Assembly (NCBI GenBank): GCA_029256705.1
Contig: JAQSXK010000010.1
Location: 10,317-74,316, forward strand
Direction of reading: 5' to 3'
Length of the DNA: 64,000 bases
DNA from: Clostridia bacterium
Lineage (GTDB): Bacteria; Bacillota; Clostridia; TANB77; CAG-465
Shown here: positions 16,878 to 44,195 of the stretch, one piece after another
Numbering within the stretch: the stretch's first letter is position 1
Layout of the letters: every line of letters begins with the position of its first letter
Notes under the pieces: generated by a model
What the model saw: the letters and a program-made list of their open reading frames with translations, nothing else
What the model was told of the DNA's origin: nothing
The model's database searches: none
Translations under genes and position numbers: made by a program

Positions 16878-17954
16878 ATGAAAAAAATTGCAATAATGAC
16901 AGCAGGTGGAGATTGTCCTGGATTAAATAGCGTAATAAAAACTGTAGTTCTTTCTGCTAGAAAAAAAGGTATAACAGTTGTTGGTATTTTAGATGGATAT
17001 ATAGGTTTCGTAGAAAACAGATATATGGTACTGACTGAAAAAATAGTAGATAATATAGATACAATGGGTGGCACGATACTTGGTTCTTCAAACAAAGAGA
17101 ATCCTTTTCATTATCCAAATAAAGAAGGTATTGCTAAATTTGAAGATAGAGTCGATGATAGTATAGAAGCATTAAGAAAATTAGATGTTGAAGGATTAAT
17201 AGTAGTAGGAGGAGATGGGTCTTTGGACTCAGCTAGAGTTATTTATGAAAGAGGAATGCCTACAATAGGAATTCCTAAAACTATAGATAATGACATGAGT
17301 GCTAGCAATCCTACAATAGGATTTGAAACAGCTGTACAAAATGCTGTAGACTGCATTTCTAAACTAAAAACAACTGCATATTCACATAAAAGAGTTATGG
17401 TAGTTGAACTTATGGGTAGAACGTCAGGATATTTAACTTTATATGCTGGCTTTGCAGCATGTTCAGATATTATACTGCTTCCTGAAAAAGACTATAATTT
17501 AAATGGTGTTATAAATGAAGTAAAACGTGTAATGTCTAATGGTAAAAGATATTGTATTATAGCAATGTCTGAAGCTGCAAAAGAAAATGGTAAAGAAGAA
17601 ACAATTGCTAGAGTTGTAAAAGATAGTTATGAAGCAAAAAGGTATGGTGGAGTATCTGCTAAACTCGCAAAGGATATAGAAGATGCAACAGGATATGAAG
17701 CTAGATCAATAATACTTGGATATTTACAAAGAGGTGGATCACCTTTTGCAACGGATATGATACTTGGTGCTAGACTTGGGGATTATGCCTTGAATTTATT
17801 AATTAATAATGAACTTGGATATATAGTTGGATCTGAAGATGGAAAATTAATAAAAACTAAATATCCTAAAACAAGAGTAGCAAGACTTTTAGACTTTGAT
17901 AATAATGATTTAATTAAAACAGCTAAAAGTATGGGAATATACTTTGGTGAATAA
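16878..17954 (+). CDS. pfkA: 6-phosphofructokinase
   Basis: It carries the TAGGDCPGLN, GGDGS, PKTIDND and MGR motifs. Confidence 0.88.
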   Translation: MKKIAIMTAGGDCPGLNSVIKTVVLSARKKGITVVGILDGYIGFVENRYMVLTEKIVDNIDTMGGTILGSSNKENPFHYPNKEGIAKFEDRVDDSIEALRKLDVEGLIVVGGDGSLDSARVIYERGMPTIGIPKTIDNDMSASNPTIGFETAVQNAVDCISKLKTTAYSHKRVMVVELMGRTSGYLTLYAGFAACSDIILLPEKDYNLNGVINEVKRVMSNGKRYCIIAMSEAAKENGKEETIARVVKDSYEAKRYGGVSAKLAKDIEDATGYEARSIILGYLQRGGSPFATDMILGARLGDYALNLLINNELGYIVGSEDGKLIKTKYPKTRVARLLDFDNNDLIKTAKSMGIYFGE

Positions 17955-17967
17955 ATAATAAATATAT

Positions 17968-18000
17968 AAAAACATCTGAATGAATTTCAGATGTTTTTTT
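17968..18000 (+). terminator. intrinsic terminator after pfkA
   Basis: A perfect 13-bp stem (aaaaacatctgaa / ttcagatgttttt) with a T7 tail. Confidence 0.85.
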
Positions 18001-18080
18001 GTCGTAATATTTCTGAAGTTTATTGCATATTTCAATAATATTACAAATGATATACTTAACAGTTAAAACGCATAATTTTG

Positions 18081-18109
18081 TTGACAAAAAGTTATATTTA
18101 ATATATAAT
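18081..18109 (+). promoter_or_regulatory. consensus sigma-A promoter of the first giant paralog
   Basis: TTGACA (18081-18086), a 17-nt spacer, then TATAAT (18104-18109). Confidence 0.7.
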
Positions 18110-18149
18110 TTTAAATAAAAAACTATTTTTAAAATAGGGGGAAACTTTG

Positions 18150-21100
18150 ATGAAAAATACAAGAAGGGGTATATCTTTAATTGTACTCGTAATAACAATA
18201 ATTATAATTGCAATTCTTGCAGGTGGTGTTATTTTAACACTATCTACAAATAATCCAATAAATAGTGCTAATGAAGCAGCATTTAAGTCGGATTTAGATG
18301 CTATAGCTTCAGATTTAAATATGTATCAAACGAGTCAATATGCTAAAGCTAAAACATATAGTCCAAATAAACTAGATGCGAATGACTTATCTGCCGAATA
18401 TGATGGTGTAGTTATTGAGGGTAAAACAATTAAAGATATAATACCTATCTTATCTAAAACAGATAAATATAACGGTCAATTTGAAATTACAGATGGTAAA
18501 TTAGTATACTTAGGTACCAATAGAACACAAAAAAGATGGGCACAAGATGTTAATGTAGAGGTTATAGATGCGGATAGATTAGATGCAATAATTTCTACAG
18601 CAACAGCTTTGCCAATATCTGCTGGAACCGAGGTTGTAGCCATTATTAAAATTTCATCTAACGCTAGTATAAATAATATAAATATAACTAATAATTTAGA
18701 ATTATTAGATCATAATAATTTACCTTTAACAATTCAACCGGTATTTGAAATTGGTGTACCAAGTGGTACTGATTTAGATGCATTAAGAACTGTAGAAGTA
18801 ACAATAAAAACAGATGGACTTGCAGAGGGCATATATAAATTGAAACTCAAATCATATAGTATATCTAATATATATGATGTAACAAATTCAAAAGATATAG
18901 TATCAAGTAATTTATTTGAAATAGATAATACACCACCAACAAATCCAGAAATGTCAGCTACTCCAACAGCATGGACTAATTCAGATGTGACTGTGTCCAT
19001 AACATATCCACCAGATAGTGTAACGAAAGAATATAGTTTGGATGGAACATCATGGGATGTATATACAAATTCAATAACTGTTAGTACAAATAATGAAACA
19101 ATATATGCAAGAGCAATAGATATAGCTGGAAATCAAAGTGGACAAAGCACAATAACTGTTGCAAATATAGATAGAGAATTACCAACAGTTACCTTTGGGA
19201 CAAACGGAGGAAATAATCTACAAGTTGCTAGTACTAAAGTAATATTAACTGATATAGGTGTAAGTGGATTAGATGTAGTTTCATTTAAGTATATATGGGA
19301 CACACAAAATGTAGATGAACCAACAGGTCAGTGGAATACATTCGTAAATGATGAAGTAATAAATAAAGTAGATTCTAATGGCACATACTATTTATGGATA
19401 AAGGCATTAGATAATGCTGGAAATAGTCTAATAACTAAATCTAATGTATTTACTGTAGATAATATAGTTCCAGAAAATCCAACAATGTCAGCAAATCCAA
19501 CAACATGGACAAATGGAAATGTAACAGTAACAATTACATATTCAGATGATACAGCAATAAAAGAATATAGCACAAATGGAACAACATGGAGTGCATATAC
19601 AGCACCAGTTGTGGTTAGTACAAATAATACAACAGTATATGCAAGAGCTAGTGATGCTAGTGGAAATCAAAGTGGACAAAGTACAATAACTATTGCAAAT
19701 ATAGATAAAGTAATACCAACAGTAGCATATGCAACAAATGGAGGAACAAATTTACAAACAGCAAGTACAGTTGTTACAGCAAATGATTTAGGTGGAAGTA
19801 ATATAGCTTCATTAGAATATATATGGGATACACAAAATGCTACAACTCCATCATCTGGATGGACAGCATTTACAACTGGTAGTACAATAACAAAATCATC
19901 AATTAACGGAACATATTATCTATGGATAAGAGTAATAGATAATGCAGAAAATAATTTTGTAACTAAATCTAATGCTTTTGTAGCAGATAATACACCACCA
20001 GTAAATCCAACAATGTCGGCATCGCCAACAGGATTTACAAATGGAAATGTAACAGTAACAATTATATATCCATCTGATGCAGCAATAAAAGAATATAGTA
20101 CAAATGGAACAGCATGGAGTGCATATACAGTACCAGTTGTAGTAACTACAAATAATACAACAATTTATGCAAGAGGATCAGATGTAATTGGAAACCAAAG
20201 TGGACAAAGCACGATAACAATTGCGAATATAGATAAGGAAATACCTGTTATATCCGAAACTTTTAGTGGTGGTGCAATATATGATGATCCTACATTTTCA
20301 AACGGATATAATAATACTAATATATATAATAATTTAGGAAATGGATTAGTAACTAATACTAGGACTGTTATAAGTGATTCACCAGTAGGTTCACAATATG
20401 GCTTAGTTATAAAATCGACTGGTGCAGTAGTTCCAGGATATGGTGGATTTTATTTTGCAACTCAAACTGTAGCGAATAAGGTTTTTGTTACTAAAATAAT
20501 AGCTAAAATACCTGTAGGATATAATATAAATTGGGCATCAAATGCTATAGGTACTGAAGGTGCAGCAACTTATTGGTTAACATCACAGGCGGGTACTGGA
20601 AATTGGCAAGAATATATTTTTGAGGTAAGATGTGGATCAACGGGACCATTTTCAACAACAAATTTCTATTATTTAACTGGTGAAACAGCACCTACAGTAT
20701 CTTCACCTTTAGTGTGGACAGTCGCATATGCTAATGTATTTGATAAGGACAAATGGTCTACGTCAGATAGTGTTATGTTTAATTCAACAGATAATAAAGG
20801 AATAGTTGCTTATGGTATAAATCAAAGTTCTACTATTCAACCTACATTTACAAATTGCAGTTCTACTACAAACATAACTAAATTAATTGATAATATAACT
20901 GTTAATGGAACATATTATGTTTGGGTAAAAGATCAAGCTGGAAATGTTGTAAATAAAGCAATAACAATAAGTAATGTTGACACATTGGCACCACAAATAT
21001 CGACTGATGTAAGAAGTGTTTTAAATACAACATTTTCAAATTGGACTTTAAGTGGTGGAGCATATATAGATGGAAGTGGTCAACTGGTATTACCAAATAC

Positions 21101-21767: not shown

Positions 21768-24700
21768 ATGATAAACAAAAGAGAAGGGATATCTTTAATT
21801 GTACTTGTTATAACAATAATAATTGTTATTATACTTGCAGGAGGTGTCATTTTGACACTTTCTGCAAACAACCCAATAAGCAGCGCAAATGAAGCTGTAT
21901 TTAAGTCAGACTTAGATGCAATAGCTTCGGATTTAAATATGTATCAGAGTAGTCAATATTCTAAAGTTAAAGCATATAGTCCAGATAGACTAAATGCAAA
22001 TGATTTAACCGCAGAATATGATGGAACAGTTATTGAAAATAAAACAATAAAAGATATAATACCAGTTTTATCTAAAACAGATAAATACAATGGACAGTTT
22101 GAGATTATAAATGGTAAATTAGTATATTTAGGTACAAATAGAACGCAAAAAAGATGGGCCCAAGATGTTAATGTAGAAGTTATAGATGCAGATAGATTAG
22201 ATGCAATAATTTCTACAGCAACAACTTTGCCAATATCTGCGGGAACTGATGTTGTAGCAACAATAAAAATTTCATCTAATGCTAGTATAAATAATATAAA
22301 ATTGACTAACAATTTAGAATTGTTAGATAACAATAATATAGCAGTTGCAACTCAACCAGTATTTGAAATTGGCACACCAACTGGTACAGAGTTGGATACA
22401 TTAAGAACTGTAGAGGTAACAATAAAAACAGATGAACTTGCAGAGGGTATATATAAATTGAAACTTAAATCATATAGTATATCTAATATATATGATGTAA
22501 CAAATTCAAAGGATATAGTAGCAGGAGAATTATTTGAAATCGATAATACACCACCAGCAAATCCAGAAATGTCAGTCACTTCGACAGGATGGACTAATTC
22601 AGATGTGATTGTATCAGTAACATATCCATCAGATAGTGTAAAGAAAGAATACAGTTTAGATGGAACTACTTGGAACACATATACAGATTCAATAACAGTT
22701 AATACAAATAATACGACAATATATTCAAGAGCAATAGATATAGCTGGAAACCAAAGTGGGCAAAGTACAATGACTATTGTAAATATAGATAAAGAATCAC
22801 CAATTTCTTTATTTGGTACAAATGGAGGAAATAATCTACAAGTTGCTAGTACTAAAGTAACATTAACTGATGTAGGAGTAAGTGGATTAGATATAACCTC
22901 ATTAAAGTATATATGGGATGCACAAAATGTAGATGAACCAACAGGTGAGTGGACTACATTTGTAAACAATGAAATTATAAGTAAAGCAGATTCAAATGGA
23001 ACATATTACTTGTGGATAAAAGCTTTAGACAATGCAGGAAATAGCATAATAACAAAATCTAATGCATTTGTTGTAGATAATATAGTTCCAGAAAATCCAA
23101 CATTGACAGCAATACCAACAGCCTGGACAAATACAAATGTAACTGTAACAATAACATACCCTTCAGATGCTTTTGTTAAAGAATATAGCATAGACGGTAT
23201 AACTTGGAATGCATACACAGAGGTAGTATTAATAACTACAAATAATACAACAATTTATACAAGAGCAACAGATGCAAGTGGAAATCAAAGCGGACAGAGT
23301 ACATTAACTGTGGCAAATATAGATAAAATAATGCCAACAGCTACATATGTAACAAATGGAGGAATAGATTTACAAACAGCAAGTACAGTAGTAACAGCAA
23401 GTGATTTAGGTGGAAGTAATATAATATCATTAGAATATATTTGGGATACACAAAATAGTGTGACACCTATTAATGGTTGGACATCATTTACTAGTGGTAG
23501 TACGATTACAAAGTCTGGAATGACAGGAACATATTACTTATGGATAAAAGTAGTAGATAATGCAGGAAATATTCTAGTAACAAAATCTAATGCTTTTGTA
23601 GCAGATAATACACCACCAGCTAATCCAACAATATCAGCCTCACCAACAGCATGGACAAATGGAAATGTAACAGTAACAATAACATATCCAGCTGATGCAT
23701 CTGTAAAAGAATACAGTACAAATGGAACAACATGGAGTGTATATACAGCACCAGTCGTAATAATTACAAATAATACAACAGTTTATGCAAGAGCAGCAGA
23801 TATGAGCGGAAACCAAAGTGGGCAAAGTACAATAACTGTAGCAAATATAGATAAAATATTACCTACCGTAACATATGGTACAAACGGAGGAACAAATCTA
23901 AAAACAGCTAGCACAACAGTAATAGCTAATGATTTAGGTGGAAGTAATATTAGTTCATCAGAATATATTTGGGATACACAAAATAGTGTAACTCCTTCAT
24001 CTGGTTGGACAGTATTTACTAGTGGTAATACAATAACAAAATCTATGGTTACAGGATCATATTACTTATGGGTAAAAGTAGTAGATAATGCTGGTAACAA
24101 TTTTGTTACAAAATCTAATGTATTTGTATTAGATAATACGCCACCAATAAATCCAGCAATGTCAGCATCTCCTACAGGATGGACAAATGGAAATGTAACA
24201 ATAACAATCACATATCCAGTTGATATGTCTGTAAAAGAGTATAGTACAAATGGTACAACGTGGAGTGCATATACAGCGCCAGTTGTAGTAAGTACAAATA
24301 ATACAACAGTTTACGCAAGAGGTAGTGATGCGAGTGGAAATCAAAGTGGACAGAGTACAATAACTGTAACAAATATTGAAAGGATAGCCCCATCGGTACC
24401 TACAGTAAACTTTAATGGATATACTCCAGGTACATGGACTTCAGCAGCAATAACACTTAATTTATCTTCTACTGATGCTAACTCAGGAATAAATAAATAT
24501 CAATGGTCTAATAATGGAACAACATGGAATGATTTCCAAAGTTCTTGGATATACAATTATGATACAGCACAAACTCCTTGTTTTAGGTCAATAGATAATG
24601 CTGGTAATGTAAGTGCTGCAACTAGTTATTATAATATTTTAAGAGATGCAACTGCACCAACATATACAAGTTATAGTATAACTAATATTACAAGTGATAC

Positions 24701-25499
24701 TTATGATGTATTCGTATATGGTGTATCTGATGCAGGAAGTGGAGTAAATAGAGTACAATTTCCAAATTGGACTGCACTTAATGGTCAAGACGATATGGTA
24801 TCAAGTTTTGAAACAAATTCTACTATAACTGGACAAAACTTAGGTAGTGGAACTTGGAAATATACTGTAAAAAGATCTGATCATAATAATGAATATGGTG
24901 TTTATTTAACACATTTATATTTATATGATAATCTAGGAAATGTTGCAGGATTTGCATTAAACAATACAACTTTAGTTGATGCAAGTATAGTAGCAAAATT
25001 TACTTTAACTGCAGCACAAGAAATATTTAATGGTAGTACTTCATATTATACGGCTGGTGAAGTATCTAATAACTATACAATAGAATTTGATGCTCAGCCT
25101 TCAGATACAATAGATGTATTTTCAGAGAATAATACACTTATAGGTCATACAGGTTATAAACATAGATTTATTATTTTGGAATCACATGGAGGTGGAGTAC
25201 CTAATGCTGGCCTTGGTGTAGATTTAGGAACAAATGGTATAGTTTTGGTTGCACATAGTAACGGATATTATCATTCATTACTTACTTACTACTCTAACCT
25301 TAATGCATGGAATCATTATAAAATAGTAGTAGAAAATAAAATTCCAAGACTATATATAAATGGAGCACTTATTAAAACAGGTTATCCGCCACTATCTTCA
25401 TATACAAAATTGTATACATTATTTTCGATTGGAACAGGTGCATATGGTAATTATATAGGTAGAGCTAATAATTTTGTGTTTTATAATACTGTTAAATAA
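21768..25499 (+). CDS. giant paralog P2: pilin-like N-terminal module, 4 A and 3 B Ig-like units, a GBS Bsp-like repeat and a LamG-like C-terminal domain
   Basis: An AGGAGG SD precedes the start. The N-terminus is MINKREG-ISLIVLVITIIIVIILAGGVILTL. The Bsp-like motif is VQFPNWTALNGQDDMV...YLTHLYLYDNLGN. The C-terminal ~170 aa (…IPRLYINGALIKTG…) has the look of a concanavalin/LamG jelly roll. Confidence 0.88.
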   Translation: MINKREGISLIVLVITIIIVIILAGGVILTLSANNPISSANEAVFKSDLDAIASDLNMYQSSQYSKVKAYSPDRLNANDLTAEYDGTVIENKTIKDIIPVLSKTDKYNGQFEIINGKLVYLGTNRTQKRWAQDVNVEVIDADRLDAIISTATTLPISAGTDVVATIKISSNASINNIKLTNNLELLDNNNIAVATQPVFEIGTPTGTELDTLRTVEVTIKTDELAEGIYKLKLKSYSISNIYDVTNSKDIVAGELFEIDNTPPANPEMSVTSTGWTNSDVIVSVTYPSDSVKKEYSLDGTTWNTYTDSITVNTNNTTIYSRAIDIAGNQSGQSTMTIVNIDKESPISLFGTNGGNNLQVASTKVTLTDVGVSGLDITSLKYIWDAQNVDEPTGEWTTFVNNEIISKADSNGTYYLWIKALDNAGNSIITKSNAFVVDNIVPENPTLTAIPTAWTNTNVTVTITYPSDAFVKEYSIDGITWNAYTEVVLITTNNTTIYTRATDASGNQSGQSTLTVANIDKIMPTATYVTNGGIDLQTASTVVTASDLGGSNIISLEYIWDTQNSVTPINGWTSFTSGSTITKSGMTGTYYLWIKVVDNAGNILVTKSNAFVADNTPPANPTISASPTAWTNGNVTVTITYPADASVKEYSTNGTTWSVYTAPVVIITNNTTVYARAADMSGNQSGQSTITVANIDKILPTVTYGTNGGTNLKTASTTVIANDLGGSNISSSEYIWDTQNSVTPSSGWTVFTSGNTITKSMVTGSYYLWVKVVDNAGNNFVTKSNVFVLDNTPPINPAMSASPTGWTNGNVTITITYPVDMSVKEYSTNGTTWSAYTAPVVVSTNNTTVYARGSDASGNQSGQSTITVTNIERIAPSVPTVNFNGYTPGTWTSAAITLNLSSTDANSGINKYQWSNNGTTWNDFQSSWIYNYDTAQTPCFRSIDNAGNVSAATSYYNILRDATAPTYTSYSITNITSDTYDVFVYGVSDAGSGVNRVQFPNWTALNGQDDMVSSFETNSTITGQNLGSGTWKYTVKRSDHNNEYGVYLTHLYLYDNLGNVAGFALNNTTLVDASIVAKFTLTAAQEIFNGSTSYYTAGEVSNNYTIEFDAQPSDTIDVFSENNTLIGHTGYKHRFIILESHGGGVPNAGLGVDLGTNGIVLVAHSNGYYHSLLTYYSNLNAWNHYKIVVENKIPRLYINGALIKTGYPPLSSYTKLYTLFSIGTGAYGNYIGRANNFVFYNTVK

Positions 25500-25589: not shown

Positions 25590-25618
25590 TTGATATTTCT
25601 TTTAATACATTATAAAAT
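25590..25618 (+). promoter_or_regulatory. candidate promoter of cassette 1 (156-aa gene plus P3); a duplicate lies at 30007-30035
   Basis: TTGATA, a 17-nt spacer, then TAAAAT. The same arrangement recurs in the duplicated upstream region. Confidence 0.5.
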
Positions 25619-25666: not shown

Positions 25667-26137
25667 ATGAATAATAAAGGTCAAAATCAGATTAGGTTAG
25701 TAATTTTAGGGGTTGTTCTTGTTATTGCAATAATAGTTGTTATTGTAGCTATTAATAAAAACAACGCAAATTCAGTGAATGATGGAAATAAAACGGATAA
25801 TACAAAAGTAAATTATACAGAAACAAATGATGGGACTAAGGTAAATACAAGCGAAGAAGTATCTCAAGATAAAAGCGTTAAAGGTGTATTATTAGAACAA
25901 AGTAAAATAGTATATACTAATGGAACATCTAAGTTAACATCAAAAGTAACAAATGATAGTATAGCAAAAGATAATTTAAGATTTAAAGTAAAATTTATAG
26001 CAAATGATGGAACTGTAATGGCAGAAGCTGTAGGATATGTAGGAAAAATAAAAGCGAATGAAACAAAATATATTGATTCATACATAACAATAGATACTTC
26101 TAATTCGAAAAATGTTACTTACGAAATAATGGAATAA
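25667..26137 (+). CDS. membrane-anchored small beta-sandwich protein (156 aa), copy 1
   Basis: An AGGAGG SD precedes the start. There is an N-terminal TM segment (LVILGVVLVIAIIVVIVAI), a low-complexity N/T/D linker and a ~90-aa beta-rich domain that resembles FxLYD/DUF4352-type domains. Confidence 0.75.
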   Translation: MNNKGQNQIRLVILGVVLVIAIIVVIVAINKNNANSVNDGNKTDNTKVNYTETNDGTKVNTSEEVSQDKSVKGVLLEQSKIVYTNGTSKLTSKVTNDSIAKDNLRFKVKFIANDGTVMAEAVGYVGKIKANETKYIDSYITIDTSNSKNVTYEIME

Positions 26138-26176: not shown

Positions 26177-29100
26177 GTGAATTATAAATATAACAAAATA
26201 GGTATTTCATTAATTGTATTAGTGATAACAATTATAGTAATAATAATACTTGCAGGAGCTGTTATTTTGACACTATCTGCAAATAATCCAATAAATAGTG
26301 CAAATGAGGCGGTATTTAAGTCAGATTTAGATGCAATTGAATCGGACTTGAGTTTGTACGTATCTAGTGAGTATGCAAATACTACTATGTTTAGTCCAGA
26401 TAATTTAAATGCAGATGATTTATCTGTAGAATATAATGGTACTGTTATTGTTGGCAAAACAATAAAAGATATAATACCTGCATTATCTACTACAAATAAA
26501 TATAATGGGCAATTCGAAGTGGTAAACGGAAAGTTAGTTTATGTAGGAACAGATAGAACAAAAAAAAGATGGGCTCAAGATGTTAATGTAGAAGTTATAG
26601 ATGCAGATAGATTAGATGCAATAATTTCTACAGCAACAACTTTACCAATATCTGCTGGAACAGATGTTGTGGCTACAATAAAAATTTCATCTAACGCTAG
26701 TATAAATAATATAAATTTAACGAGTAAACTAGAGTTATTAGATAAAAATAATGTGTTAGTTCCAGTTCAACCATTATTTGAAATTGGCACACCAACTGGG
26801 ACTGGCTTAGATACATTAAGAACTGTAGATGTAACAATAAAAACAGATACACTTACAGAAGGTATATATAAATTAAAATTGAAAGCGTATAGTATATCTA
26901 ATATATATGATGTGGTAATAGAAACTGATATAGTAACAAGTGAGTTATTTGAAATAGATAATACACCACCAACAAATCCAGAAATGTCAGTTACTCCAAC
27001 TGGATGGACTAATTTAGAGGTATTTGTGTCAATTACATACCCATCAGATAGTGTAGTAAAAGAATATAGTTTAGATGGAATAATATGGAATGTATATACA
27101 AATTCAATAACAGTTAATACAAACAGTACAACAATATATGCAAGATCAACAGATATAGCTGGAAACCAAAGTGGACAAAGTACAATAACTATTGCGAATA
27201 TAGATAGAGAATCACCAACAGTTGTATATGGAACTAATGGTGGAGATGATCTACAAGTGGCAAGTACTACAGTAATAGTAACTGATGTAGGGGTAAGCGG
27301 AGTAGATATGACATCATTGAATTATATTTGGGATACACAAAATACTGTAGAACCTGCTAATGGTTGGATAGTATTTGAAAATGGAAATAATATAACTAAA
27401 TCTGGAATTACAGGTACATATTATTTATGGATAAAGGCTACAGACAATACAGGGAATAGTGTAATAACTAAGTCTAATGCTTTTATAGCAGATAATACTG
27501 CTCCGGAAAATCCAGTTATGTCAGCTTCATATACAGGTTGGACAAACGGAAATGTAAATGTAACAATAACATATTCTTCTGATGCAGCATTAAAAGAATA
27601 TAGTACAGACGCTTCAACATGGAATACATACACAGCTCCAGTTGTAATAAGTACAAATAATACAACAGTATATGCAAGGGCAACAGATGCAAGCGGAAAC
27701 CAAAGTGATCAAAGTACAATGACTATAGCAAATATAGATAAAACATTACCAACAGTAACATTTAGCCCAAGTAATATCGCTATGACAAATAATGATGTTT
27801 CAATATCTGTAAGTGCAGTAGATGCTGGCGGAAGCAATATGAAAAAATGGAGATATAGATTAAGTAGTAATAATGGATCTACATATGGTGATTGGCAAGG
27901 TGTAAATACTGGATATAATCCAACTCAGACTTATACACTTGGTGCTGGTATAACAGTTCCAGTTCTTGTAGGTTTACCTATGAATTTAAAACAAAATCAA
28001 AAATATATGCTAGAATTTGATTATAGTTGCTTAAGCGGTACTAATATATTTAATGTAGATTTGTGGCCAGATGATTTACCAGAGGCACATATAAATGCTA
28101 CTACTGCTTTACAGCATTATATTTGGAATAATATAACTTCTAGTAGTATAAATATGAATACCGCAAATTTAAGAATTTTTAATGATATTATAAGACCAAA
28201 CCCAACAGATGTATATATAAATAATATTAATCTATATCCAAAAGAAACTCATAGTATATTATTAAATAGTACTGGTGATTGGAAAATACAAATAGAAGCA
28301 TATGACAATGCAAATAATAGTTCGATATTTACTTCAAATTTATTTAGTATAGATAAAATAGCACCAACAAATCCAACAATGGCAGCTTCACCTACAGGAT
28401 GGACAAATGGAAACGTAGCAGTTACAATAACATATCCAGGGGATTCTGTAATTAAACAATATAGTTTTGATACAATAACTTGGAATACATATACATCAAC
28501 TGTCACAGTATCTAATAATACAACAGTATATGCAAGAACTAGTGATGCTAGTGGAAACCAAAGTGGACAAAGTACACTAACAGTATCAAATATAGATAAA
28601 GTAGCGCCAACGGTAATAGCTACATATAAAAAAGCAGATACAACATCATACGTTTCAGATTCTTGGACTAATCAATCTGTAACTATTACAGCTGCAGGAA
28701 ATGATGGAAGTGGAAGTGGTGTAAATAGGTACCAAATTACATATGATGGATCAACATATTATGATTTACCAAACGGGACAGTTACACTAAGTACTACTGG
28801 AAGAACTGGGGTTTGGGTGAGAGCTATAGATAATGTAGAAAATATAGGGCCTAATTCATCAACATACTTGGTTGCAATAGATAAATTAGCCCCAACCGTT
28901 TCATATAGCACTAATGGAGCAACAAATGTGCAAGTAGCAAGTACTCAAATAACTGTAAATGATGCTGCTAGTTTAAGTGGATTAAATACATCTAGTTTAC
29001 AATATGTGTGGGATGTACAAAATGTAACTACTCCAACAGTTGGATGGGCAAATTTTACAAATGATTCTATTTTAACAAAATTAGGTGTAACTGGAATATA

Positions 29101-29887
29101 TTATTTATGGATTAAAGCGTCAGATAATGCAGGTAACATTGTTGTTTCAAAATCAAATTCATTTTCGATTGTTTCATATTATGCATTTAGTTATACTGGA
29201 AATTATCAAACTTGGACAGCACCTTCGACTGGTAAAATAAAAATTGAAACTTGGGGTGCTATGGGTGGAACACCTATGGGGGATAATTACTATTCGGGTA
29301 AAGGTGGATACGCGTCAGGTGAATTAAATGTTAATGCAGGAGATTTATTATATCTATATGTAGGTGCATATGGTATTAACGGTGGTTGGAACGGTGGCGG
29401 TAAAAATAGTTATCAAGGTGGAAATAACAATTTTACCGGTGGTGGAGCTTCAGATGTTAGAAAAAACGGTATGGCACTATCAAATAGAATAATAGTTGCA
29501 GGTGGCGGAGGAGCCAGCGGTGGATGGCAATCAAGAGGAGGAGATGGTGGAGGTCTGACTGGTAATAGTGGAACTTCAATATCAACTTATACAGGAAATA
29601 GATTTGGTACAGGTGGAACGCAAGCATCTGGTGGAACTGGAGGAACAAGTACTACTTATTCAAACGGTAATAACGGAATATTAGGAATAGGTGGAGATGC
29701 TTATGCTGCTTCTGGCGGCGGAGGCGGAGGCTATTATGGCGGCGGAGGCGGTACAGGAATCAATGCTGATGATGGTGGCGGCGGAGGCGGCTCATCATAT
29801 ATTGGAGGTGTTCTTAATGGAACAACTAGTATAGGTGCTAATACCGATTTTAATGGTAAAATTTCAATAACATATATAATACCATAA
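26177..29887 (+). CDS. giant paralog P3: pilin-like N-terminal module, Ig-like units and a glycine-rich C-terminal domain
   Basis: A GTG start follows aagaggtga. The N-terminus is VNYKYNKIG-ISLIVLVITIIVIIILAGAVILTL. The C-terminus reads YAFSYTGNYQTWTAPSTGKIKIETWGAMGG...GGGASDVRKNG.ALSNRIIVAGGGG... Confidence 0.88.
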   Translation: MNYKYNKIGISLIVLVITIIVIIILAGAVILTLSANNPINSANEAVFKSDLDAIESDLSLYVSSEYANTTMFSPDNLNADDLSVEYNGTVIVGKTIKDIIPALSTTNKYNGQFEVVNGKLVYVGTDRTKKRWAQDVNVEVIDADRLDAIISTATTLPISAGTDVVATIKISSNASINNINLTSKLELLDKNNVLVPVQPLFEIGTPTGTGLDTLRTVDVTIKTDTLTEGIYKLKLKAYSISNIYDVVIETDIVTSELFEIDNTPPTNPEMSVTPTGWTNLEVFVSITYPSDSVVKEYSLDGIIWNVYTNSITVNTNSTTIYARSTDIAGNQSGQSTITIANIDRESPTVVYGTNGGDDLQVASTTVIVTDVGVSGVDMTSLNYIWDTQNTVEPANGWIVFENGNNITKSGITGTYYLWIKATDNTGNSVITKSNAFIADNTAPENPVMSASYTGWTNGNVNVTITYSSDAALKEYSTDASTWNTYTAPVVISTNNTTVYARATDASGNQSDQSTMTIANIDKTLPTVTFSPSNIAMTNNDVSISVSAVDAGGSNMKKWRYRLSSNNGSTYGDWQGVNTGYNPTQTYTLGAGITVPVLVGLPMNLKQNQKYMLEFDYSCLSGTNIFNVDLWPDDLPEAHINATTALQHYIWNNITSSSINMNTANLRIFNDIIRPNPTDVYINNINLYPKETHSILLNSTGDWKIQIEAYDNANNSSIFTSNLFSIDKIAPTNPTMAASPTGWTNGNVAVTITYPGDSVIKQYSFDTITWNTYTSTVTVSNNTTVYARTSDASGNQSGQSTLTVSNIDKVAPTVIATYKKADTTSYVSDSWTNQSVTITAAGNDGSGSGVNRYQITYDGSTYYDLPNGTVTLSTTGRTGVWVRAIDNVENIGPNSSTYLVAIDKLAPTVSYSTNGATNVQVASTQITVNDAASLSGLNTSSLQYVWDVQNVTTPTVGWANFTNDSILTKLGVTGIYYLWIKASDNAGNIVVSKSNSFSIVSYYAFSYTGNYQTWTAPSTGKIKIETWGAMGGTPMGDNYYSGKGGYASGELNVNAGDLLYLYVGAYGINGGWNGGGKNSYQGGNNNFTGGGASDVRKNGMALSNRIIVAGGGGASGGWQSRGGDGGGLTGNSGTSISTYTGNRFGTGGTQASGGTGGTSTTYSNGNNGILGIGGDAYAASGGGGGGYYGGGGGTGINADDGGGGGGSSYIGGVLNGTTSIGANTDFNGKISITYIIP

Positions 29888-30084: not shown

Positions 30085-30555
30085 ATGAGTAATAAAGGTC
30101 AAAATCAAATGAGGTTAGTAATTTTAGGAGTTGTTCTTGTTATTGCAATAATAGTTGTTATTGTAGCTATTAATAAAAACAATGCAAATTCAGTGAATGA
30201 AGGAAATAAAACAGATAATACAAAAGTAAATTACACAGAAACAAATGATGGAACTAAGGTAAATACAAGTGAAGAAGTATCTCAAGATAAAAATGTTAAA
30301 GGTGTGCTATTAGAACAAAGTAAAATAGTATATACAAATGGAACATCTAAGTTAACATCTAAGGTAACAAACGATAGTACAGCAAAAGATAATTTAAGAT
30401 TTAAAGTAAAATTTATAGCAAATGATGGAACTGTAATGGCAGAAGCTGTAGGATATGTAGGAAAAATAAAAGCAAATGAAACAAAATATATTGATTCATA
30501 CATAACAATAGATACTTCTAATTCAAAAAATGTTACTTATGAAATAATGGAGTAG
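30085..30555 (+). CDS. membrane-anchored small beta-sandwich protein (156 aa), copy 2
   Basis: It differs from copy 1 at 5 of 156 residues (N2S, I9M, D39E, S69N, I98T). The SD and upstream leader are the same. Confidence 0.75.
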   Translation: MSNKGQNQMRLVILGVVLVIAIIVVIVAINKNNANSVNEGNKTDNTKVNYTETNDGTKVNTSEEVSQDKNVKGVLLEQSKIVYTNGTSKLTSKVTNDSTAKDNLRFKVKFIANDGTVMAEAVGYVGKIKANETKYIDSYITIDTSNSKNVTYEIME

Positions 30556-30586: not shown

Positions 30587-33500
30587 GTGAATTACAAATA
30601 TAATAAAATAGGTATATCATTAATAGTATTGGTTATAACAATAATAGTTATTGTTATTCTTGCAGGTGCTGTTATTTTAACATTATCTGCAAATAATCCA
30701 ATAAATAGTGCGAATGAGTCGGTATTTAAGTCAGATTTAGATGCAATTGAATCGGACTTAAGTTTGTATGTAGCTAGTGAGTATGCAAATACTACTTCGT
30801 TTAGTCCAGATAGTCTAAATGCAGACGATTTATCTGTAGATTATAATGGTAATGTTATTGTAGGTAAAACAATAAAAGATATAATACCTGCATTATCTAC
30901 TACAAATAAATATAATGGGCAATTTGAAGTGGTAAACGGAAAATTAGTTTATGTAGGAACAGATAGAACAAAAAAAAGATGGGCACAGGAAACTAATGTG
31001 GATGTTATAGATGCAGATAGATTAGATGCAATAATTTCTACAACAACAACTTTGCCAATATCTGCAGGAACAGATGTTGTAACTACAATAAAAATTTCAT
31101 CTAATGCTAGTATAAATAATATAAATTTAACAAGTAAACTAGAGTTATTAGATAAAAATAATGTATCAGTTACAGTTCAACCATTATTTGAAATTGGCAG
31201 TCCAACTGGAACTGGGTTAGATACATTAAGAACTGTAGAAGTGACAATAAAAACAGATGGGCTCGCAGAAGGTATATATAAATTAAAATTGAAACCATAT
31301 AGCATATCTAATATATATGATGTAACAAACTCAATAGATATAATTAGTAGTGAATTATTTGAAATAGATAATACGCCACCAACAAATCCAGAAATGTCAT
31401 CTACTCCAACAGGATGGACAGATTTAGATGTTTCAATATCCATAACATATCCATTAGATAGTGTAACAAAAGAATATAGTTTAGATGGTACATCATGGAA
31501 TGTATATACAAATCCAATAACAGTTAATACAAATAATACAACAATATATGCAAGAGCGATAGATATAGCTGGAAATCAAAGTGGACAAAGTACAATAACT
31601 ATTGCAAATATAGATAGAGAATCACCAACAGTTATATTCGGTACAAATGGGGGAAATAATCTACAAGTTGCTAGTACTAAAGTAACAGTAACTGATGTAG
31701 GTGTAAGTAATGTAGATATAACTTCATTAAAGTATATATGGGATACACAAAATGTAGATGAACCAACAGGTCAGTGGAATACATTTGTAAATGGTGAAGT
31801 AATAAATAAAGTAGATTCTAATGGCACATATTATTTATGGATAAAAGCATTAGATAATACAGGAAATAGTGTAACAACTAAATCTAACGCATTTGCTGTA
31901 GATAATATAATTCCTGTAAATCCAACAATGTCAGCAAGTCCTACAGGATGGACAAATGGAAATGTAACAGTAACAATTACATATTCAGCTGATGCAGTTG
32001 TTAAAGAATATAGTACAGATACTTTAACATGGAGTGCATATATAGCACCAGTTGTGATTAGTACAAATAATACAACAGTATATGCAAGAGCTAGTGATGC
32101 TAGTGGAAATCAAAGTGAGCAAAGTACTATGACTGTAGCAAATATAGATAAAGTAATACCAGTAATAACTGCTGAAAATGATGGCTCAACAACATCAAGT
32201 ATAACAGTCAAAGCAACTGCGTCGGATTTAGGTGGAAGTGCACTTAATAACGGTTCATACCAATATTCAAAGGATAATGGTGTTACATGGACGGCACTTA
32301 CTAATGTAACAAGTTATACATTTAGTTCACTAACAACAGGAGCATATCAATGTAAAGTAAAGGTATTGGATAACGCAGGTAACAGTGCTATATCTAATAC
32401 ATTAGGAATATCAACAGTAGCTGTTGGAACGATAACAATGTCAGCAAGTCCAACAACTTGGACAAATGGCAATGTAACTGTAACTATAGCATATCCAGCA
32501 GAAGTTGTAACAAAACAATATAGTTTGAATGGTACAACATGGTCTACATATACATCAGCAGTAATAGTTACAACAAATGGAACATTATATGCTAGGGGAT
32601 ATGATGCAGGAAATAATCAAACAACGCAGGCAACAATAACAATAGCTAATATAGATAAAACGTTACCAGTAGTTTCAAACTCTGTAAGTGGAGGTATGAT
32701 ATTTACAGATCAAAAGTTTCAAAATGGAATAAATAATACTTATGTATATAATAATCTTGGTAATGGTACAGTAACTAATACACGTATTGCAATGGCAGAT
32801 TCACCTACAGGTTCTGGATATGGATTGGAAGTAAGAACAACAGGAACACCATCTCCAGGATGGGGAGGATTCTATTTTGCAAATATGGCATCTGCAAATA
32901 AGGTGTTTATTACGAAAATTATAGCAAGTATACCAGTAGGATATACAATAAATTGGGCTTCAAATGCATTTGGTGATGGTGGTACAATCACATGGTTAAC
33001 ATCTCAAGATGGAACAGGAACTTGGCAAGAATATGTATGTAAAGTTACTTGTGGTCCAACAGGAGCATTTAGTTCAACTAACTTTTATTACTTAACTGGA
33101 GGAGCAACACCAACATCATCCAATCCTTTAGTTTGGAGAGTTGCATACGCAACAGTATTTGATACAACATTATGGAAAACAACAAGTAATGCTATAGTGA
33201 GTGCAACAGATACATCTGGAATAGTAGGATATGGAATAAACCAAAGTAGTGTAACTGCACCTACATTTACAAATATAAGTGCAAGAGTAAACTTTGCAAC
33301 AGTATTTGAAAATATTACTGTAAATGGAACATACTACGTATGGCTAAAAGATCAAGCTGGTAATGTAACAAATACTTCAATTTTAGTAAATTATATTGAT
33401 AATATTGTACCAACTGTAACATATGGAACAAATGGTGGTACAGTAGTAACAGCAAGTACAACTGTTACAATAAATGATACAGGTGGAAGTAATTTAAATA

Positions 33501-34525
33501 CAAGTACATTACAATATGTATGGGATATACAAAATGTAACAACACCAGTATCAGGATGGAATACATTTACCAATGGAACAACAATAACTAATTCTGGTAC
33601 AGGAACTTATTATTTGTGGATAAAAGGATCAGATAATGCAGGAAACAATGTAATTACAAAATCTAATGCTTTTGTAACAGTACCTTCAGTAAACCAGACA
33701 TTTGGTTATAATGGAAGTTATCAAACATGGACAGTACCTTATACTGGAACATATAAACTTGAAGTTTGGGGAGCACAAGGCGGAAACAATTGGAATATTG
33801 TTGGTGGTCTAGGTGCATATAGTAGTGGAAATATAAATTTAACTGCTGGAACTATTCTTTATGTATATGTTGGTGGCCAAAATGGTTATAATGGTGGAGG
33901 AACTGCTGGAACAGGAAGTGCTTGTGAAAATGGTGCAAACGGTGGTGGAGCAACTGACATAAGACTTTCTGGAACGGCTCTTGCTAATAGAATCATAGTA
34001 GCTGGCGGCGGAGGCGGTGCTAGTGGAGGTGGCTCAGGACATTACCAAAATGCTACAGGATATAATGGTGCTTATGGTGGTGGCGGAAGTGGAATTGGTA
34101 TAGGAGCACCTGCTTTATATCACGGTGCCGGAGGATCTGCAGGAGGAACAGGTGCAGGAAATGGAGGATCTGCTTCAGGTGGAGATATAACTAGTATGTC
34201 AACATATGCAAAAGGATACAACGGAGGAAATGGATCACTAGGTCAAGGTGGATCTGGTGGAGGAGTATATGGAGATAGATTAGATTACTATGGCCCAGGC
34301 TCTGGCGGCGGAGGCGGAGGCGGCTACTACGGTGGTGGTGGCGGCGGCGGCGGTGCCGGCTGGTGGGGTTCTAACGGTGGTGCTGGTGGTGGCGGTTCTT
34401 GCTATATTGGTGGTGTAACATCAGGTCAAACAATAGCTGGAAATGCTACAATGCCAGGTACAGCTGGTGGTTCAATAGTTGGAAATAGTGGTAATGGTTA
34501 TGTTAAAATAACTAATGCACCATAA
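30587..34525 (+). CDS. giant paralog P4: pilin-like N-terminal module, Ig-like units, a jelly-roll-like module shared with P1 and an expanded glycine-rich C-terminal domain
   Basis: The GTG start and SD match those of P3. The N-terminal ~500 aa are closely similar to P3. The internal block NSVSGGMIFTDQKF...VWRVAYATVFD parallels P1 ETFSGGAIYDDPTF...VWTVAYANVFD. The C-terminal domain contains G7 and G8 runs. Confidence 0.88.
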   Translation: MNYKYNKIGISLIVLVITIIVIVILAGAVILTLSANNPINSANESVFKSDLDAIESDLSLYVASEYANTTSFSPDSLNADDLSVDYNGNVIVGKTIKDIIPALSTTNKYNGQFEVVNGKLVYVGTDRTKKRWAQETNVDVIDADRLDAIISTTTTLPISAGTDVVTTIKISSNASINNINLTSKLELLDKNNVSVTVQPLFEIGSPTGTGLDTLRTVEVTIKTDGLAEGIYKLKLKPYSISNIYDVTNSIDIISSELFEIDNTPPTNPEMSSTPTGWTDLDVSISITYPLDSVTKEYSLDGTSWNVYTNPITVNTNNTTIYARAIDIAGNQSGQSTITIANIDRESPTVIFGTNGGNNLQVASTKVTVTDVGVSNVDITSLKYIWDTQNVDEPTGQWNTFVNGEVINKVDSNGTYYLWIKALDNTGNSVTTKSNAFAVDNIIPVNPTMSASPTGWTNGNVTVTITYSADAVVKEYSTDTLTWSAYIAPVVISTNNTTVYARASDASGNQSEQSTMTVANIDKVIPVITAENDGSTTSSITVKATASDLGGSALNNGSYQYSKDNGVTWTALTNVTSYTFSSLTTGAYQCKVKVLDNAGNSAISNTLGISTVAVGTITMSASPTTWTNGNVTVTIAYPAEVVTKQYSLNGTTWSTYTSAVIVTTNGTLYARGYDAGNNQTTQATITIANIDKTLPVVSNSVSGGMIFTDQKFQNGINNTYVYNNLGNGTVTNTRIAMADSPTGSGYGLEVRTTGTPSPGWGGFYFANMASANKVFITKIIASIPVGYTINWASNAFGDGGTITWLTSQDGTGTWQEYVCKVTCGPTGAFSSTNFYYLTGGATPTSSNPLVWRVAYATVFDTTLWKTTSNAIVSATDTSGIVGYGINQSSVTAPTFTNISARVNFATVFENITVNGTYYVWLKDQAGNVTNTSILVNYIDNIVPTVTYGTNGGTVVTASTTVTINDTGGSNLNTSTLQYVWDIQNVTTPVSGWNTFTNGTTITNSGTGTYYLWIKGSDNAGNNVITKSNAFVTVPSVNQTFGYNGSYQTWTVPYTGTYKLEVWGAQGGNNWNIVGGLGAYSSGNINLTAGTILYVYVGGQNGYNGGGTAGTGSACENGANGGGATDIRLSGTALANRIIVAGGGGGASGGGSGHYQNATGYNGAYGGGGSGIGIGAPALYHGAGGSAGGTGAGNGGSASGGDITSMSTYAKGYNGGNGSLGQGGSGGGVYGDRLDYYGPGSGGGGGGGYYGGGGGGGGAGWWGSNGGAGGGGSCYIGGVTSGQTIAGNATMPGTAGGSIVGNSGNGYVKITNAP

Positions 34526-41702: not shown

Positions 41703-44195
41703 ATGGAATATCTTAGTGGAAGAAAAGGTATATCTTTAATAAGTTTAGTTATAATTATTGTAATTATGATTATATTAGCAGGAGCAGTTATTTTGACATT
41801 ATCAAATAACAATGCAATTAATAAAGCAACAGAAGCAGTTTTTAAAAGTATATTAAAAGATTATGAAAGTGAATTAACCATGTGGTTTTCAAATGAATAT
41901 TTAGAAACTAATGGATTACTAAATGTAACTACTGTTAATGCTACAAAGGATAGTGGCACGTATATAAAAGGCGGAAACACACTTAAATTAAAAGACATAA
42001 TAACAAGTGTAAAGAAAGAACATGAAAGCTTACTAGAAATAAAAAAAGGAAGACTTATATATACTGGAACAGATGAAAAACAAAAAGAATGGATGAATCA
42101 AATTGGAATATCTTTAGATATAACAACTGAAACTGGTGCAATACCTGTAGATATAGTAGCGGGGTGGACATTTACTGCTGCTTTAATGAGCGACGGAACA
42201 GTTAAAACATGGGGAAGTAATGGATATGGACAATTAGGTGATGGAACACTGATGAATAGAAGTTTGCCCACAACCATTTCTGGTTTAGAAAATGTAGTTC
42301 AAATAGCTGCAGGTGATGAATATATGCTAGCATTGTTAAATGATGGAACTGTAAAAGCATGGGGAAGTAACTGGGCAGGACAACTTGGTAACGGAACAAC
42401 AGAAGATAAAAGTATACCTACAATTGTAACTGGATTAACAAATGTAAGTAAAATAGCGGCAGGTCAATATCTTTCACTTGCAATATTAAATGATGGAACA
42501 GTTAAGGGATGGGGATATAATGAATTTGGTCAACTAGGTGATGGTACATTGCAAAATAAAAGTGTACCTACAACAGTAACAGGACTTACTAATGTAAAAC
42601 AATTAGCATCAGGATATGATCATACACTTGCATTATTAAATGATGGAACAGTAAAAGCTTGGGGTTGTAATAATTACGGAAAATTAGGAGATGGTACTAC
42701 AAATGATACTACATCTCCAATAACAATTTCTGGTTTAAATAATGTTACACAAATTTCTGCAGGATACTATCACTCTGTAGCTTTACTAAGTGATGGAACA
42801 ATAAAGACATGGGGAAGTAACTGGGCAGGACAACTTGGTAACGGATCAAATACTGATGTACATGTACCAACCCTTGTATCAGGATTAACTGGAGTAAAAC
42901 AAATTTGTAAAAATTATGATCATACCGCTGTAATTATGAATGATGGAACAATAAAAATATGGGGCTACAATGAGTATGGACAATTAGCTAATGGAACAAC
43001 AATAGACAGTAATGTACCAATTACAATAACAAACACACTAAATGTAAAACAAATTGCAATTGGTGGTAATCATACGGTAGCTATTTTAGCTGATGGAACA
43101 ATAAAATCATGGGGTAACAATGATCATGGTCAATTAGGTGATGGAAAAACTTCTAATTATTACTTACCTAAAATATTAGAAGGCTTAACAAATGTAAAAC
43201 AAGTATCCGCGGGATGGATGCACTCAGCTTTCCTATTAAATGATGGTACAGTTAAAATAATGGGAGATAACGAATATGGACAAATAGGTGATGGTACGAA
43301 TATAGACAGTAACGTTCCAGTATCGGTTTTGGGTTTAAATAATGTAAACCAAATTACATCAGGAGATAATTTTATGTTAGCATTATTAAACGATGGGACA
43401 GTAAAAGCTTGGGGAGATAATATGTTCGGCCAGTTAGGTACTGGAACAACAATAGATAGTAATGTTCCAGTAACAATATCTGGACTTACAAACGTAGTAC
43501 AAATAGCTTCAGGTGAATATCATGCAGCAGCTTTGCTAAATGATGGAACTGTAAAGATATGGGGAGCTAATTGGGCAGGAGAATTAGGAAATGGAACTAA
43601 AACAAATAGTAAAGTTCCAATAATAGTACCTGGACTTACAAATGTAAAAGAATTAGCACTAGGATATGATTATACTTTAGCATTACTAAATGATGGAACA
43701 GTAAAAGCTTGGGGTTGTAATAAATACGGTCAATTAGGAGACGCAACCAATACTGATAGCACTGTGCCAGTAACTGTGCCAGGACTTACAAATGTAAAAC
43801 AATTAGTATCTGGATATGAACATGTATTAGCATTATTAAATGATGGAACAGTGAAATCTTGGGGAAGTAACTGGGCAGGACAACTTGGAGATGGTACAAT
43901 AACAGACAGTAATATACCTGTAGTAGTATCTGCGGTATATAATGTAAAAGAGCTGTGTAAAGAGTATGATCATACATTAGTATTATTAAACGATGGAACA
44001 GTGAAATCTTGGGGATATAATGAATTTGGGCAGTTAGGTAACGGAACAAATGAAAATAATTATTATCCAACTATTATATCTGGACTGTCTAACGTAAAAC
44101 AAGTAACAACAGGTGGTGATCATTCATTGGCACTACTAAATGATGGAACTGTAAAAGTATGGGGTAGCAATAGTCAAGGTCAAATAGGAAATTAA
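41703..44195 (+). CDS. paralog P5: pilin-like N-terminal module fused to 14 RCC1-type beta-propeller blades
   Basis: An AGGAGG SD lies 9 nt upstream. The N-terminus is MEYLSGRKG-ISLISLVIIIVIMIILAGAVILTL, followed by a head homologous to those of P1-P4 (NKATEAVFKS...LIYTGTDEKQKEWM). I counted 14 DGT[VI]K.[WM]G..(.)GQLG repeats. Confidence 0.88.
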   Translation: MEYLSGRKGISLISLVIIIVIMIILAGAVILTLSNNNAINKATEAVFKSILKDYESELTMWFSNEYLETNGLLNVTTVNATKDSGTYIKGGNTLKLKDIITSVKKEHESLLEIKKGRLIYTGTDEKQKEWMNQIGISLDITTETGAIPVDIVAGWTFTAALMSDGTVKTWGSNGYGQLGDGTLMNRSLPTTISGLENVVQIAAGDEYMLALLNDGTVKAWGSNWAGQLGNGTTEDKSIPTIVTGLTNVSKIAAGQYLSLAILNDGTVKGWGYNEFGQLGDGTLQNKSVPTTVTGLTNVKQLASGYDHTLALLNDGTVKAWGCNNYGKLGDGTTNDTTSPITISGLNNVTQISAGYYHSVALLSDGTIKTWGSNWAGQLGNGSNTDVHVPTLVSGLTGVKQICKNYDHTAVIMNDGTIKIWGYNEYGQLANGTTIDSNVPITITNTLNVKQIAIGGNHTVAILADGTIKSWGNNDHGQLGDGKTSNYYLPKILEGLTNVKQVSAGWMHSAFLLNDGTVKIMGDNEYGQIGDGTNIDSNVPVSVLGLNNVNQITSGDNFMLALLNDGTVKAWGDNMFGQLGTGTTIDSNVPVTISGLTNVVQIASGEYHAAALLNDGTVKIWGANWAGELGNGTKTNSKVPIIVPGLTNVKELALGYDYTLALLNDGTVKAWGCNKYGQLGDATNTDSTVPVTVPGLTNVKQLVSGYEHVLALLNDGTVKSWGSNWAGQLGDGTITDSNIPVVVSAVYNVKELCKEYDHTLVLLNDGTVKSWGYNEFGQLGNGTNENNYYPTIISGLSNVKQVTTGGDHSLALLNDGTVKVWGSNSQGQIGN
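42140..44192 (+). repeat. about 150-nt periodic coding repeats (14 RCC1 blades)
   Basis: The repeating ~50-aa units are visible in both the protein and the DNA (…aatgatggaacagtaaaagcttgggg… recurs). Confidence 0.85.

Follow-up and report, generated by a model that had tools for sequence, protein, structure and literature searches.

Pilin-like head modules without Glu5 on large surface proteins of uncultured Clostridia

Can a protein belong to the type IV pilins without the glutamate at position +5 after the leader (Glu5)? The question is raised by a 64,000-nucleotide stretch of a Clostridia genome (assembly GCA_029256705.1, contig JAQSXK010000010.1, positions 10,317 to 74,316), referred to below as the window. 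Its list of open reading frames (ORFs) and their translations contains five ORFs, here called P1-P5, with a common N-terminal head of about 140 amino acids (aa). A preliminary description of this DNA had reported five such heads and likened them to type IV pilins. Exactly five were found by a six-frame motif scan of the window, and their N-termini read exactly as given there. The likeness to pilins is supported by profile alignments in the same register, by pilus gene clusters of relatives in which family members occupy the pilin slots, and by the topology predicted with AlphaFold.

P1 (18150..21674, + strand, 1174 aa) was identified as an ORF with its translation and coincides with the JGI gene call, which sets its start at the ATG at 18150; a TTG is present at 18147. 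The short, basic leader MKNTRRG (18150..18170) ends with a Gly at -1 that is invariant in the family, and is followed by an alpha1N-like hydrophobic segment of 25 aa, ISLIVLVITIIIIAILAGGVILTLS (18171..18245), which has Val at +5 where canonical pilins have Glu. The head module comprises aa 1-140 (18150..18569), as delimited by comparison with P5. The remaining four proteins are encoded on the same strand: P2 at 21768..25499 (1243 aa; head 21768-22187), P3 at 26177..29887 (1236 aa; head 26177-26602), P4 at 30587..34525 (1312 aa; head 30587-31012) and P5 at 41703..44195 (830 aa; head 41703-42116). All five leaders are, as in pilins, short and basic, with 7-9 aa and a terminal Gly, and the 25 hydrophobic residues after this Gly correspond to the 20-25 residues that align with pilin alpha1N. 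Glu5 itself is missing: P1-P4 have Val at +5 and P5 has Ser there, and the GFTLIE motif is absent from the heads, both as described before.

P1-P4 are paralogues across their first 570-950 aa (65-78% identity), while the similarity of P5 to them is confined to aa ~24-138 (37-41% identity). This confinement identifies the head as a discrete module with a boundary near aa 140. Each head is fused to a long repeat stalk and a distal binding-type module, either glycine-rich, GBS Bsp-like or RCC1. In P1 the head is followed by a shared domain reaching to ~aa 265 and by OmpL47-type/CHB_HEX_C-like beta-barrel repeats (six stretches matching NF047446; CHB_HEX_C matches weakly); library scans found such barrels in P1, P2 and P4. 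P2 adds to its repeats a GBS_Bsp-like module (aa 972-1063), P3 and P4 end with glycine-rich ALK_LTK_GRD domains (aa 1017-1213 and 1053-1309, respectively) and P5 continues with ~13-14 RCC1 repeats, which form beta-propellers. An N-terminal module joined to domains foreign to pilus biology is what characterizes modular pilins (Raynaud et al. 2021), and P1-P5 all have this composition.

Next, the relation of the head to pilins was examined at the sequence level. Comparison of the head profile with 177,635 PDB sequences returned eight matches at E<10, six of them type IV pilins or pseudopilins: Geopilin (E=1.1e-4 and 7.6e-3), followed by Streptococcus sanguinis PilE1, MshA, a third Geopilin and GspG. 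Among the four alignments displayed, those containing the leader pair Gly-1 with Gly-1, and Val5 stands opposite Glu5. The same register was recovered by hhalign against an alignment of canonical GFTLIE pilins built from unrelated loci (93.4% probability, E=2.5e-7, 78 columns). As far as can be judged from sequence, the head is homologous to type IV pilins over its N-terminal ~60-80 residues.

The structure predicted by AlphaFold for the full head of P1 from a 102-sequence alignment (mean predicted local distance difference test score, pLDDT, 82.9) consists of a helix spanning residues 10-66, kinked at NNP, followed by five short strands and a C-terminal helix. A truncated head (aa 30-145) was modelled with pLDDT 89.5 and a predicted template modelling score (pTM) of 0.80, its topology unchanged. 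The predicted topology is lollipop-like, a long helix carrying a small beta-sheet.

The head proved to be widespread. A single-sequence search with the P1 head gave 5 relatives only; a profile built from these five and the window heads gave more than 1,800 matches in a word-indexed database, so the family becomes visible only with a profile. When 1.84 billion cluster representatives (50%-identity clusters) were scanned exhaustively with HMMER, 11,174 matches were obtained at E<=1e-3, of which 2,020 reached E<=1e-10 and 164 reached E<=1e-30. Among the matches listed, which are proteins of 129-1,236 aa, the head begins within residue 43 and mostly within the first ten. Given 2,020 cluster representatives at E<=1e-10 and N-terminal placement throughout, recurrence of the head motif is far beyond chance. 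The consensus of 239 sequences fetched is [KR][KR]-G | ISLIVLVITIIVIIILAGAVILSL..NNPI..A.EA.FK, and the conserved motifs reported earlier for the window heads (NNPI..A.EA.FK, GKLVY.G and a Trp) were found again across the wider family. In the 237 motif-matched members Gly, S+2 and L+3 are invariant, K or R dominates at the two positions before Gly, and many further hydrophobic positions are conserved in more than 90%; the L036 relative has Ala instead of Gly. At +5 the tally is V194/I17/T16/L4/A3/M2/S1, with Glu or Asp in 0 of 239 members. By these counts the head family is very large, unannotated and apparently never acidic at +5.

In 80 long representatives, at least 25 Pfam module families were found C-terminal to the head, including the glycine-rich domain, Bsp-like, RCC1, LamG, Ig-like, LRR/BspA, GLUG, cadherin-like, discoidin and GH113 modules. 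The C-terminal 60 aa of all 239 database members are free of LPXTG-like motifs, as are the printed C-termini of P3, P4 and P5, which leaves the head as the sole evident anchor. In GTDB species genomes the family was confirmed at no fewer than 270 of the 593 pattern matches examined. All 78 loci kept come from metagenome-assembled genomes (MAGs) of uncultured Clostridia/Bacillota, the named sources being human (Hadza), buffalo and sheep gut. In ~20-kb pieces of one of them, STCSWMC_228, at least 26 distinct head genes were counted, with ORFs of up to 3,451 aa. A typical paralogue cluster lies among housekeeping genes (DnaG/SigA, McsB/ClpC), away from pilus genes.

Short members of the family are found in a different setting. 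A complete type IV pilus cluster (locus L006), beside the spoIIIA operon, includes family member P0121 (160 aa) together with its two tandem paralogues. The gene order there is a PilM-N fusion (PilN domain E=3e-7), a PilO-like gene, two small membrane proteins, three GISLIV pilins, a PilD-like gene, a minor pilin, a 73-aa protein, PilB (MshEN+T2SSE), PilT and PilC. The same order, with GISLIV pilins of 106-191 aa, recurs in the GTDB MAG locus L076 (its PilB 63% identical), in human-gut contigs (L088-90) and in buffalo-gut and other contigs (L099-101, L102-103, L104-107). In total, at least 7 distinct PilB/PilC/PilM-N-O clusters of relatives include short head-family members, which appear to hold the major-pilin position in these uncultured spore-forming Clostridia. 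The hydrophobic helix is nearly residue-for-residue identical in the scattered long members and the cluster pilins, while the globular part differs between the long, GKLVY.G-type heads and the short, L006-type pilins. The clusters thus connect the head family with bona fide pilus machinery, and the large proteins of the window are its modular, dispersed branch.

More distant clusters (L091 and L092) contain KGITLVAL-type pilins, also without Glu5. This second Glu5-less type, KGITLVALVVTIVVLLILAG (75-87 aa; L091 9654-9881, L092 9655-9918), occurs on other low-GC contigs, and its existence suggests that the loss of Glu5 is older than the GISLIV family. Head-bearing proteins are also encoded directly upstream of pilus clusters (L099 4265-5599 and 5609-6061; L104 4409-5485). 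A 444-aa protein 4 kb upstream of one cluster combines a head with Dockerin_1, a hint that pilin heads and cohesin-dockerin assemblies may be connected. For P0351, a protein of a type IV pilus cluster, the longest contig on the list measures 366,052 bp, as does JAFYUV010000017.1 (RGIG7442), which bears an LRR-containing head gene (L036); the matching length suggests that one genome holds both the cluster and the scattered head gene. Directly after PilC in L006, and in that cluster only, a 491-aa multi-pass membrane protein with no Pfam match is encoded (17371-18846); judged by its sequence, it may be a pilin-modifying glycosyltransferase of the GT-C type. A T2SSE-like match at the end of locus L009 was discarded as a pilus cluster, since it belongs to a ParA/ParB-type region.

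The clusters share a second peculiarity. In every Glu5-less cluster the gene in the PilD position (L006 11583-12386, L076 10489-11352, L089 9977-10801, L099 10001-10843, L091 9977-10783, L092 9854-10615) encodes a full-length Pfam A24_N_bact domain (E~1e-29), the methylase/Zn-finger domain with CxxC...CxxC, and no Peptidase_A24 domain. Canonical PilDs from loci with GFTLIE pilins (L093, L094), used for comparison, carry the YD.K and GxGDVK motifs. In L091 and L092 transmembrane segments are kept C-terminal to A24_N but GxGD is gone, and the L092 protein ends early; in L006, L076 and L089 the protease half is replaced by a charged linker and a pilin-like segment. This fused segment (KKxG-VFVSE/VYITE...) has Glu or Asp at +5, while in L091 and L092 an Asp5 minor pilin is a separate ORF directly downstream. 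The 120 best homologues in the database are 262-292 aa long, and many of them represent tens to hundreds of sequences; all contain PF06750 only and no GxGD, and 101 of them have Glu at +5 of the internal pilin-like segment; some such A24_N-only proteins are labelled 'prepilin peptidase' by NCBI. Within our own sample, loss of Glu5 and of the linked protease co-occur, in 8 of 8 Glu5-less cluster types, as against GxGD in 3 of 3 canonical clusters. No Peptidase_A24 gene was found within 10 kb of any cluster examined. Matches to a GxGD-K pattern in 1.46 Mb of family loci, sampled ~20 kb around pilin genes, were false positives only (ComEA, an M14 peptidase).

The N-terminal domain of PilD is the methylase and the C-terminal one the protease; the two are separable, TadV lacking the methylase (PMC10191384). 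Since the linked PilD-like protein has no aspartyl protease, the leader is either cleaved by an unlinked A24 peptidase or some other enzyme, or not cleaved at all. The good conservation of the methylase domain argues that a free N-terminus may still be produced, through an unlinked peptidase.

Taken together, these results make it reasonably probable that P1-P5 are modular pilin-like surface proteins of an uncultured low-GC, cell-walled bacterium of the Clostridia/Bacillota, displayed by a Glu5-independent type IV pilus. Their precursors would be inserted by Sec and the signal recognition particle (SRP) as bitopic N-in membrane proteins, with the leader in the cytoplasm, and would be processed at the Gly, given a peptidase. 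A PilB/PilC-type pilus machine encoded elsewhere in the genome would then extract them from the membrane via their heads and place them at a filament tip or on a very short filament, in each case made of Glu5-less major pilins, presenting interchangeable adhesin modules outside the cell wall. The bulk of P1-P5 makes the tip or a very short filament the most probable location. Glu5 is found in class III signal peptides 'often, but not always' (PMC10191384), it is missing from tip-capping subunits, and for modular pilins a location at the tip is predicted (PMC10191384, PMC9934059, PMC8179133). At the tip there is no subunit above that needs charge neutralisation (PMC9934059, PMC10191384), and Glu5 is believed to neutralise the neighbouring subunit's N-terminal amine (PMC10191384). 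Because the presumed major pilins also lack Glu5, the lineage appears to have given up the salt bridge between Glu5 and the N-terminal amine altogether.

Several observations weigh against this explanation. Neither the full nor the helix-truncated head model gave anything significant in a Foldseek search of the PDB, nor anything at E<2; the sole pilin listed was Clostridioides difficile PilW (E about 5, TMq 0.24-0.37). Of the pilin fold suspected earlier, the long helix and small beta-sheet are thus reproduced by prediction, but a significant structural match to a pilin is not: the helix looks pilin-like by sequence, and the ~70-residue globular part has no demonstrated structural relative. 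The heads have no significant Pfam or NCBIfam match either, pilin and pseudopilin models staying below threshold. The best sub-threshold matches are to the N-terminus of GspG TIGR01710 (profile positions 1-55, E=0.002-0.085, 13-18 bits against a cutoff of 88.85). N_methyl (PF07963), which we take to be the model underlying IPR012902, the criterion of the published modular-pilin census, is below threshold or absent in all five heads, matching only P1 (E=0.054, 13.5 bits against a cutoff of 21.2).

The genomic surroundings also speak against it. Pfam scans of called ORFs detected no PilB/C/D/M/N/O/T-type gene across the 64 kb, nor in a further 8.6 kb of upstream contig, where only housekeeping genes are encoded; the earlier statement that the window has no prepilin peptidase or pilus-assembly gene therefore holds and extends beyond it. 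A pilus cluster of the window's own sample was sought via JGI-sourced PilD-like matches, all of which came from other samples. The PilD homologue that the clusters do encode lacks the protease domain, and leader cleavage is a precondition of assembly in known systems; in Pseudomonas aeruginosa PilA, substitutions of Glu5 block methylation and assembly. At least 26 head genes in one MAG, some encoding more than 3,000 aa, are far more than any pilus is known to incorporate, and many head proteins may never enter a filament.

A more far-reaching claim, which we regard as doubtful, is also compatible with the evidence. It states that a widespread lineage of uncultured, spore-forming Clostridia from the gut and the environment has a pilus that dispensed with Glu5 in all its pilins, the major ones included, and with the PilD protease, leaving a PilD homologue of methylase and Zn-finger fused to a pilin module with Glu5, processing being absent or carried out by an unrecognised enzyme, and that the head would serve as an export and display tag for dozens of giant adhesins per genome.

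Among the alternatives, the one that survives best, though we find it unlikely, is that the head is derived from pilins but now serves only as a membrane anchor, as the base of a stalk or in a short bindosome-like assembly, and that only the short cluster members polymerise. The large proteins would then stay in the cytoplasmic membrane with their repeats spanning the wall. It would account for the dozens of head genes per MAG, which encode as many as 3,451 aa and lie dispersed between housekeeping genes with no pilus machinery adjoining the large ones, and fits with the functional peptidase not detected in linked clusters and with the globular part that differs between GKLVY.G-type heads and L006-type pilins. 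Archaeal sugar-binding proteins with class III signal peptides are reportedly a precedent for such non-pilus use (PMC3047682). It is the unprecedented number and size of paralogues that keeps this alternative alive. A plain anchor, however, would not need a helix nearly identical to that of the cluster pilins, the invariant Gly at -1 suggests processing, the folded part of the head is conserved across fusions, and a gene joining a head to a dockerin lies beside a pilus cluster.

That the N-terminus is an ordinary Sec signal peptide or anchor, its pilin likeness a coincidence of composition, seems very improbable. The curated pilin models that stay below threshold, the Foldseek search without a significant match and the missing Glu5 and GFTLIE would all agree with it. 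Yet among all PDB sequences, many membrane proteins included, the profile selects pilins in register (hhalign agreeing at 93%), and single hydrophobic positions are near-invariant over 239 members, which is atypical of signal anchors. A stretch of 25 hydrophobic residues is longer than expected of a typical signal-peptidase I substrate. Above all, relatives hold the pilin slots of type IV pilus clusters, and this genomic context largely refutes the coincidence. An origin of the genes as phage or prophage tail-fibre-like proteins is hardly credible and was rejected: glycine-rich domains such as the ALK_LTK_GRD of P3 and P4 also occur in phage fibres, but 2.9 million IMG/VR contigs yielded no head relative, the genes on either side are housekeeping genes without phage functions, and most family members carry other modules.

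How does the favoured explanation, display by a Glu5-independent pilus, compare with known systems? S. sanguinis PilB and PilC (PMC8179133, PMC9934059) likewise consist of a small N-terminal pilin module with grafted adhesion or lectin-type domains. Concanavalin/LamG-type lectins, found on these modular pilins, are also frequent in the head family, and a tip location is expected from bulk for both. Unlike the head proteins, PilB and PilC carry Glu5 in class III signal peptides of the canonical type, measure ~50 kDa and are encoded inside the pil locus. Head proteins are up to 1,300 aa long in the window and up to 3,451 aa long in relatives, and their genes (five in the window, at least 26 per MAG) are scattered off the machinery. 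The resemblance to S. sanguinis modular pilins proposed earlier therefore stands for the grafting of domains onto a pilin module, and fails for Glu5, the N_methyl signature and encoding in a pil locus. As the head is missed by models of the N_methyl/IPR012902 type, the published census of modular pilins would not have counted these proteins. We regard P1-P5 as putative modular pilins in architecture and function, which lack both Glu5 and a significant N_methyl match.

GspK/PilK-type tip pilins and S. sanguinis PilA also have a residue at +5 that is not acidic. In known systems of the GspK/PilK type, however, Glu5 is missing from a single subunit, whose gene lies with those of the other minor pilins, and is retained by the major pilin, whereas in the Glu5-less clusters the candidate major pilins lack it as well and an acidic +5 occurs only in the pilin-like module on, or directly downstream of, the PilD-like gene. 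P1-P5 share with these capping pilins the absence of Glu5 only: no T2SSK-type domain was found among their library matches, and no minor-pilin operon (HIJK) context in the window. Archaeal pilins and the Sulfolobus bindosome resemble the family in having no conserved Glu5 and a pilin-type N-terminus on many surface proteins; Pfam Pilin_N (PF07790) gave weak, sub-threshold matches for one cluster pilin and for the 156-aa ORFs described below. The machinery found here is nevertheless of a bacterial, T4aP-like type (PilB with MshEN, PilT, PilC, PilM/N). Moreover, archaea have an active PibD/FlaK A24 peptidase without the methylase, while here the opposite half is kept, methylase and Zn-finger without protease. 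The published pilus cluster of TANB77, an order of uncultured low-GC gut Clostridia (PMC11680825), shares pilin-like proteins that standard annotation overlooks, but it is of the Tad (CpaF-TadB/C) type rather than the PilB/PilT/PilC/PilMN type and was for this reason rejected as the same system. A literature search found no paper describing the head family or a PilD consisting of A24_N only.

Within the window, two of the head genes have a conserved companion. A 156-aa single-pass membrane protein, a possible partner, is encoded at 25667..26137 (+ strand), ~40 bp upstream of P3, and a second copy (96.8% aa identity) at 30085..30555 (+ strand), directly upstream of P4. Homologues with 36-61% identity likewise precede head genes in L009, L035 and L045. 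The 156-aa gene and a head gene thus form a conserved pair, and the 156-aa protein is possibly a partner or chaperone. The region 25600-29887, with its 156-aa gene and P3, is mirrored by 30020-34525 with the other copy and P4. The heads of P3 and P4 share 91% DNA identity, while their C-terminal parts are diverged or reshuffled. This identity, together with the near-identical companion copies, suggests that the P3 and P4 units arose by a recent tandem segmental duplication.

The window corresponds to part of a 116,787-bp JGI metagenome contig (Ga0456363_0000371, sample 3300042922), beginning near position 11,684 of that contig. The surrounding gene content is chromosomal and typical of Firmicutes, with a GC content of 25-34% in the window. 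The upstream flank includes ArgS, a TrmA-like gene, two P-type ATPases, formate-tetrahydrofolate (THF) ligase, Der and PFK; downstream genes are a class A penicillin-binding protein (PBP), LexA, ArsR/D/A, a CCA-adding-type enzyme, an HD domain protein, GreA, ABC transporters and an Fe-dependent alcohol dehydrogenase (Fe-ADH). An ArsR-ArsD-ArsA arsenic-resistance operon, with LexA and a flavoprotein, lies at 38095-40532, between the P1-P4 block and P5. The ORF at 60425-64000, which runs beyond the end of the window (at least 1,191 aa), combines a Sec-type signal peptide of the ordinary kind with DUF6531 and RHS repeats and is predicted to be an Rhs-family toxin-like surface protein, no kin of the pilin heads.

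Glu5 and cleavage by PilD are treated as near-universal in bacterial type IV filaments, and a large natural clade that lacks Glu5 and encodes a protease-less PilD homologue in its pilus clusters is a natural experiment on their roles. Tools and censuses based on signatures are blind to this family, and those expecting Glu5 probably miss it too; a large share of the surface adhesins that uncultured gut Clostridia possess is accordingly annotated as 'hypothetical'. The pattern K/R-G-ISLIVLVITIIVIIILAG...NNPI offers a handle to search for such adhesins. Their lectin-like, LRR, RCC1 and dockerin modules point to probable roles in binding to the host, to glycans or between cells.

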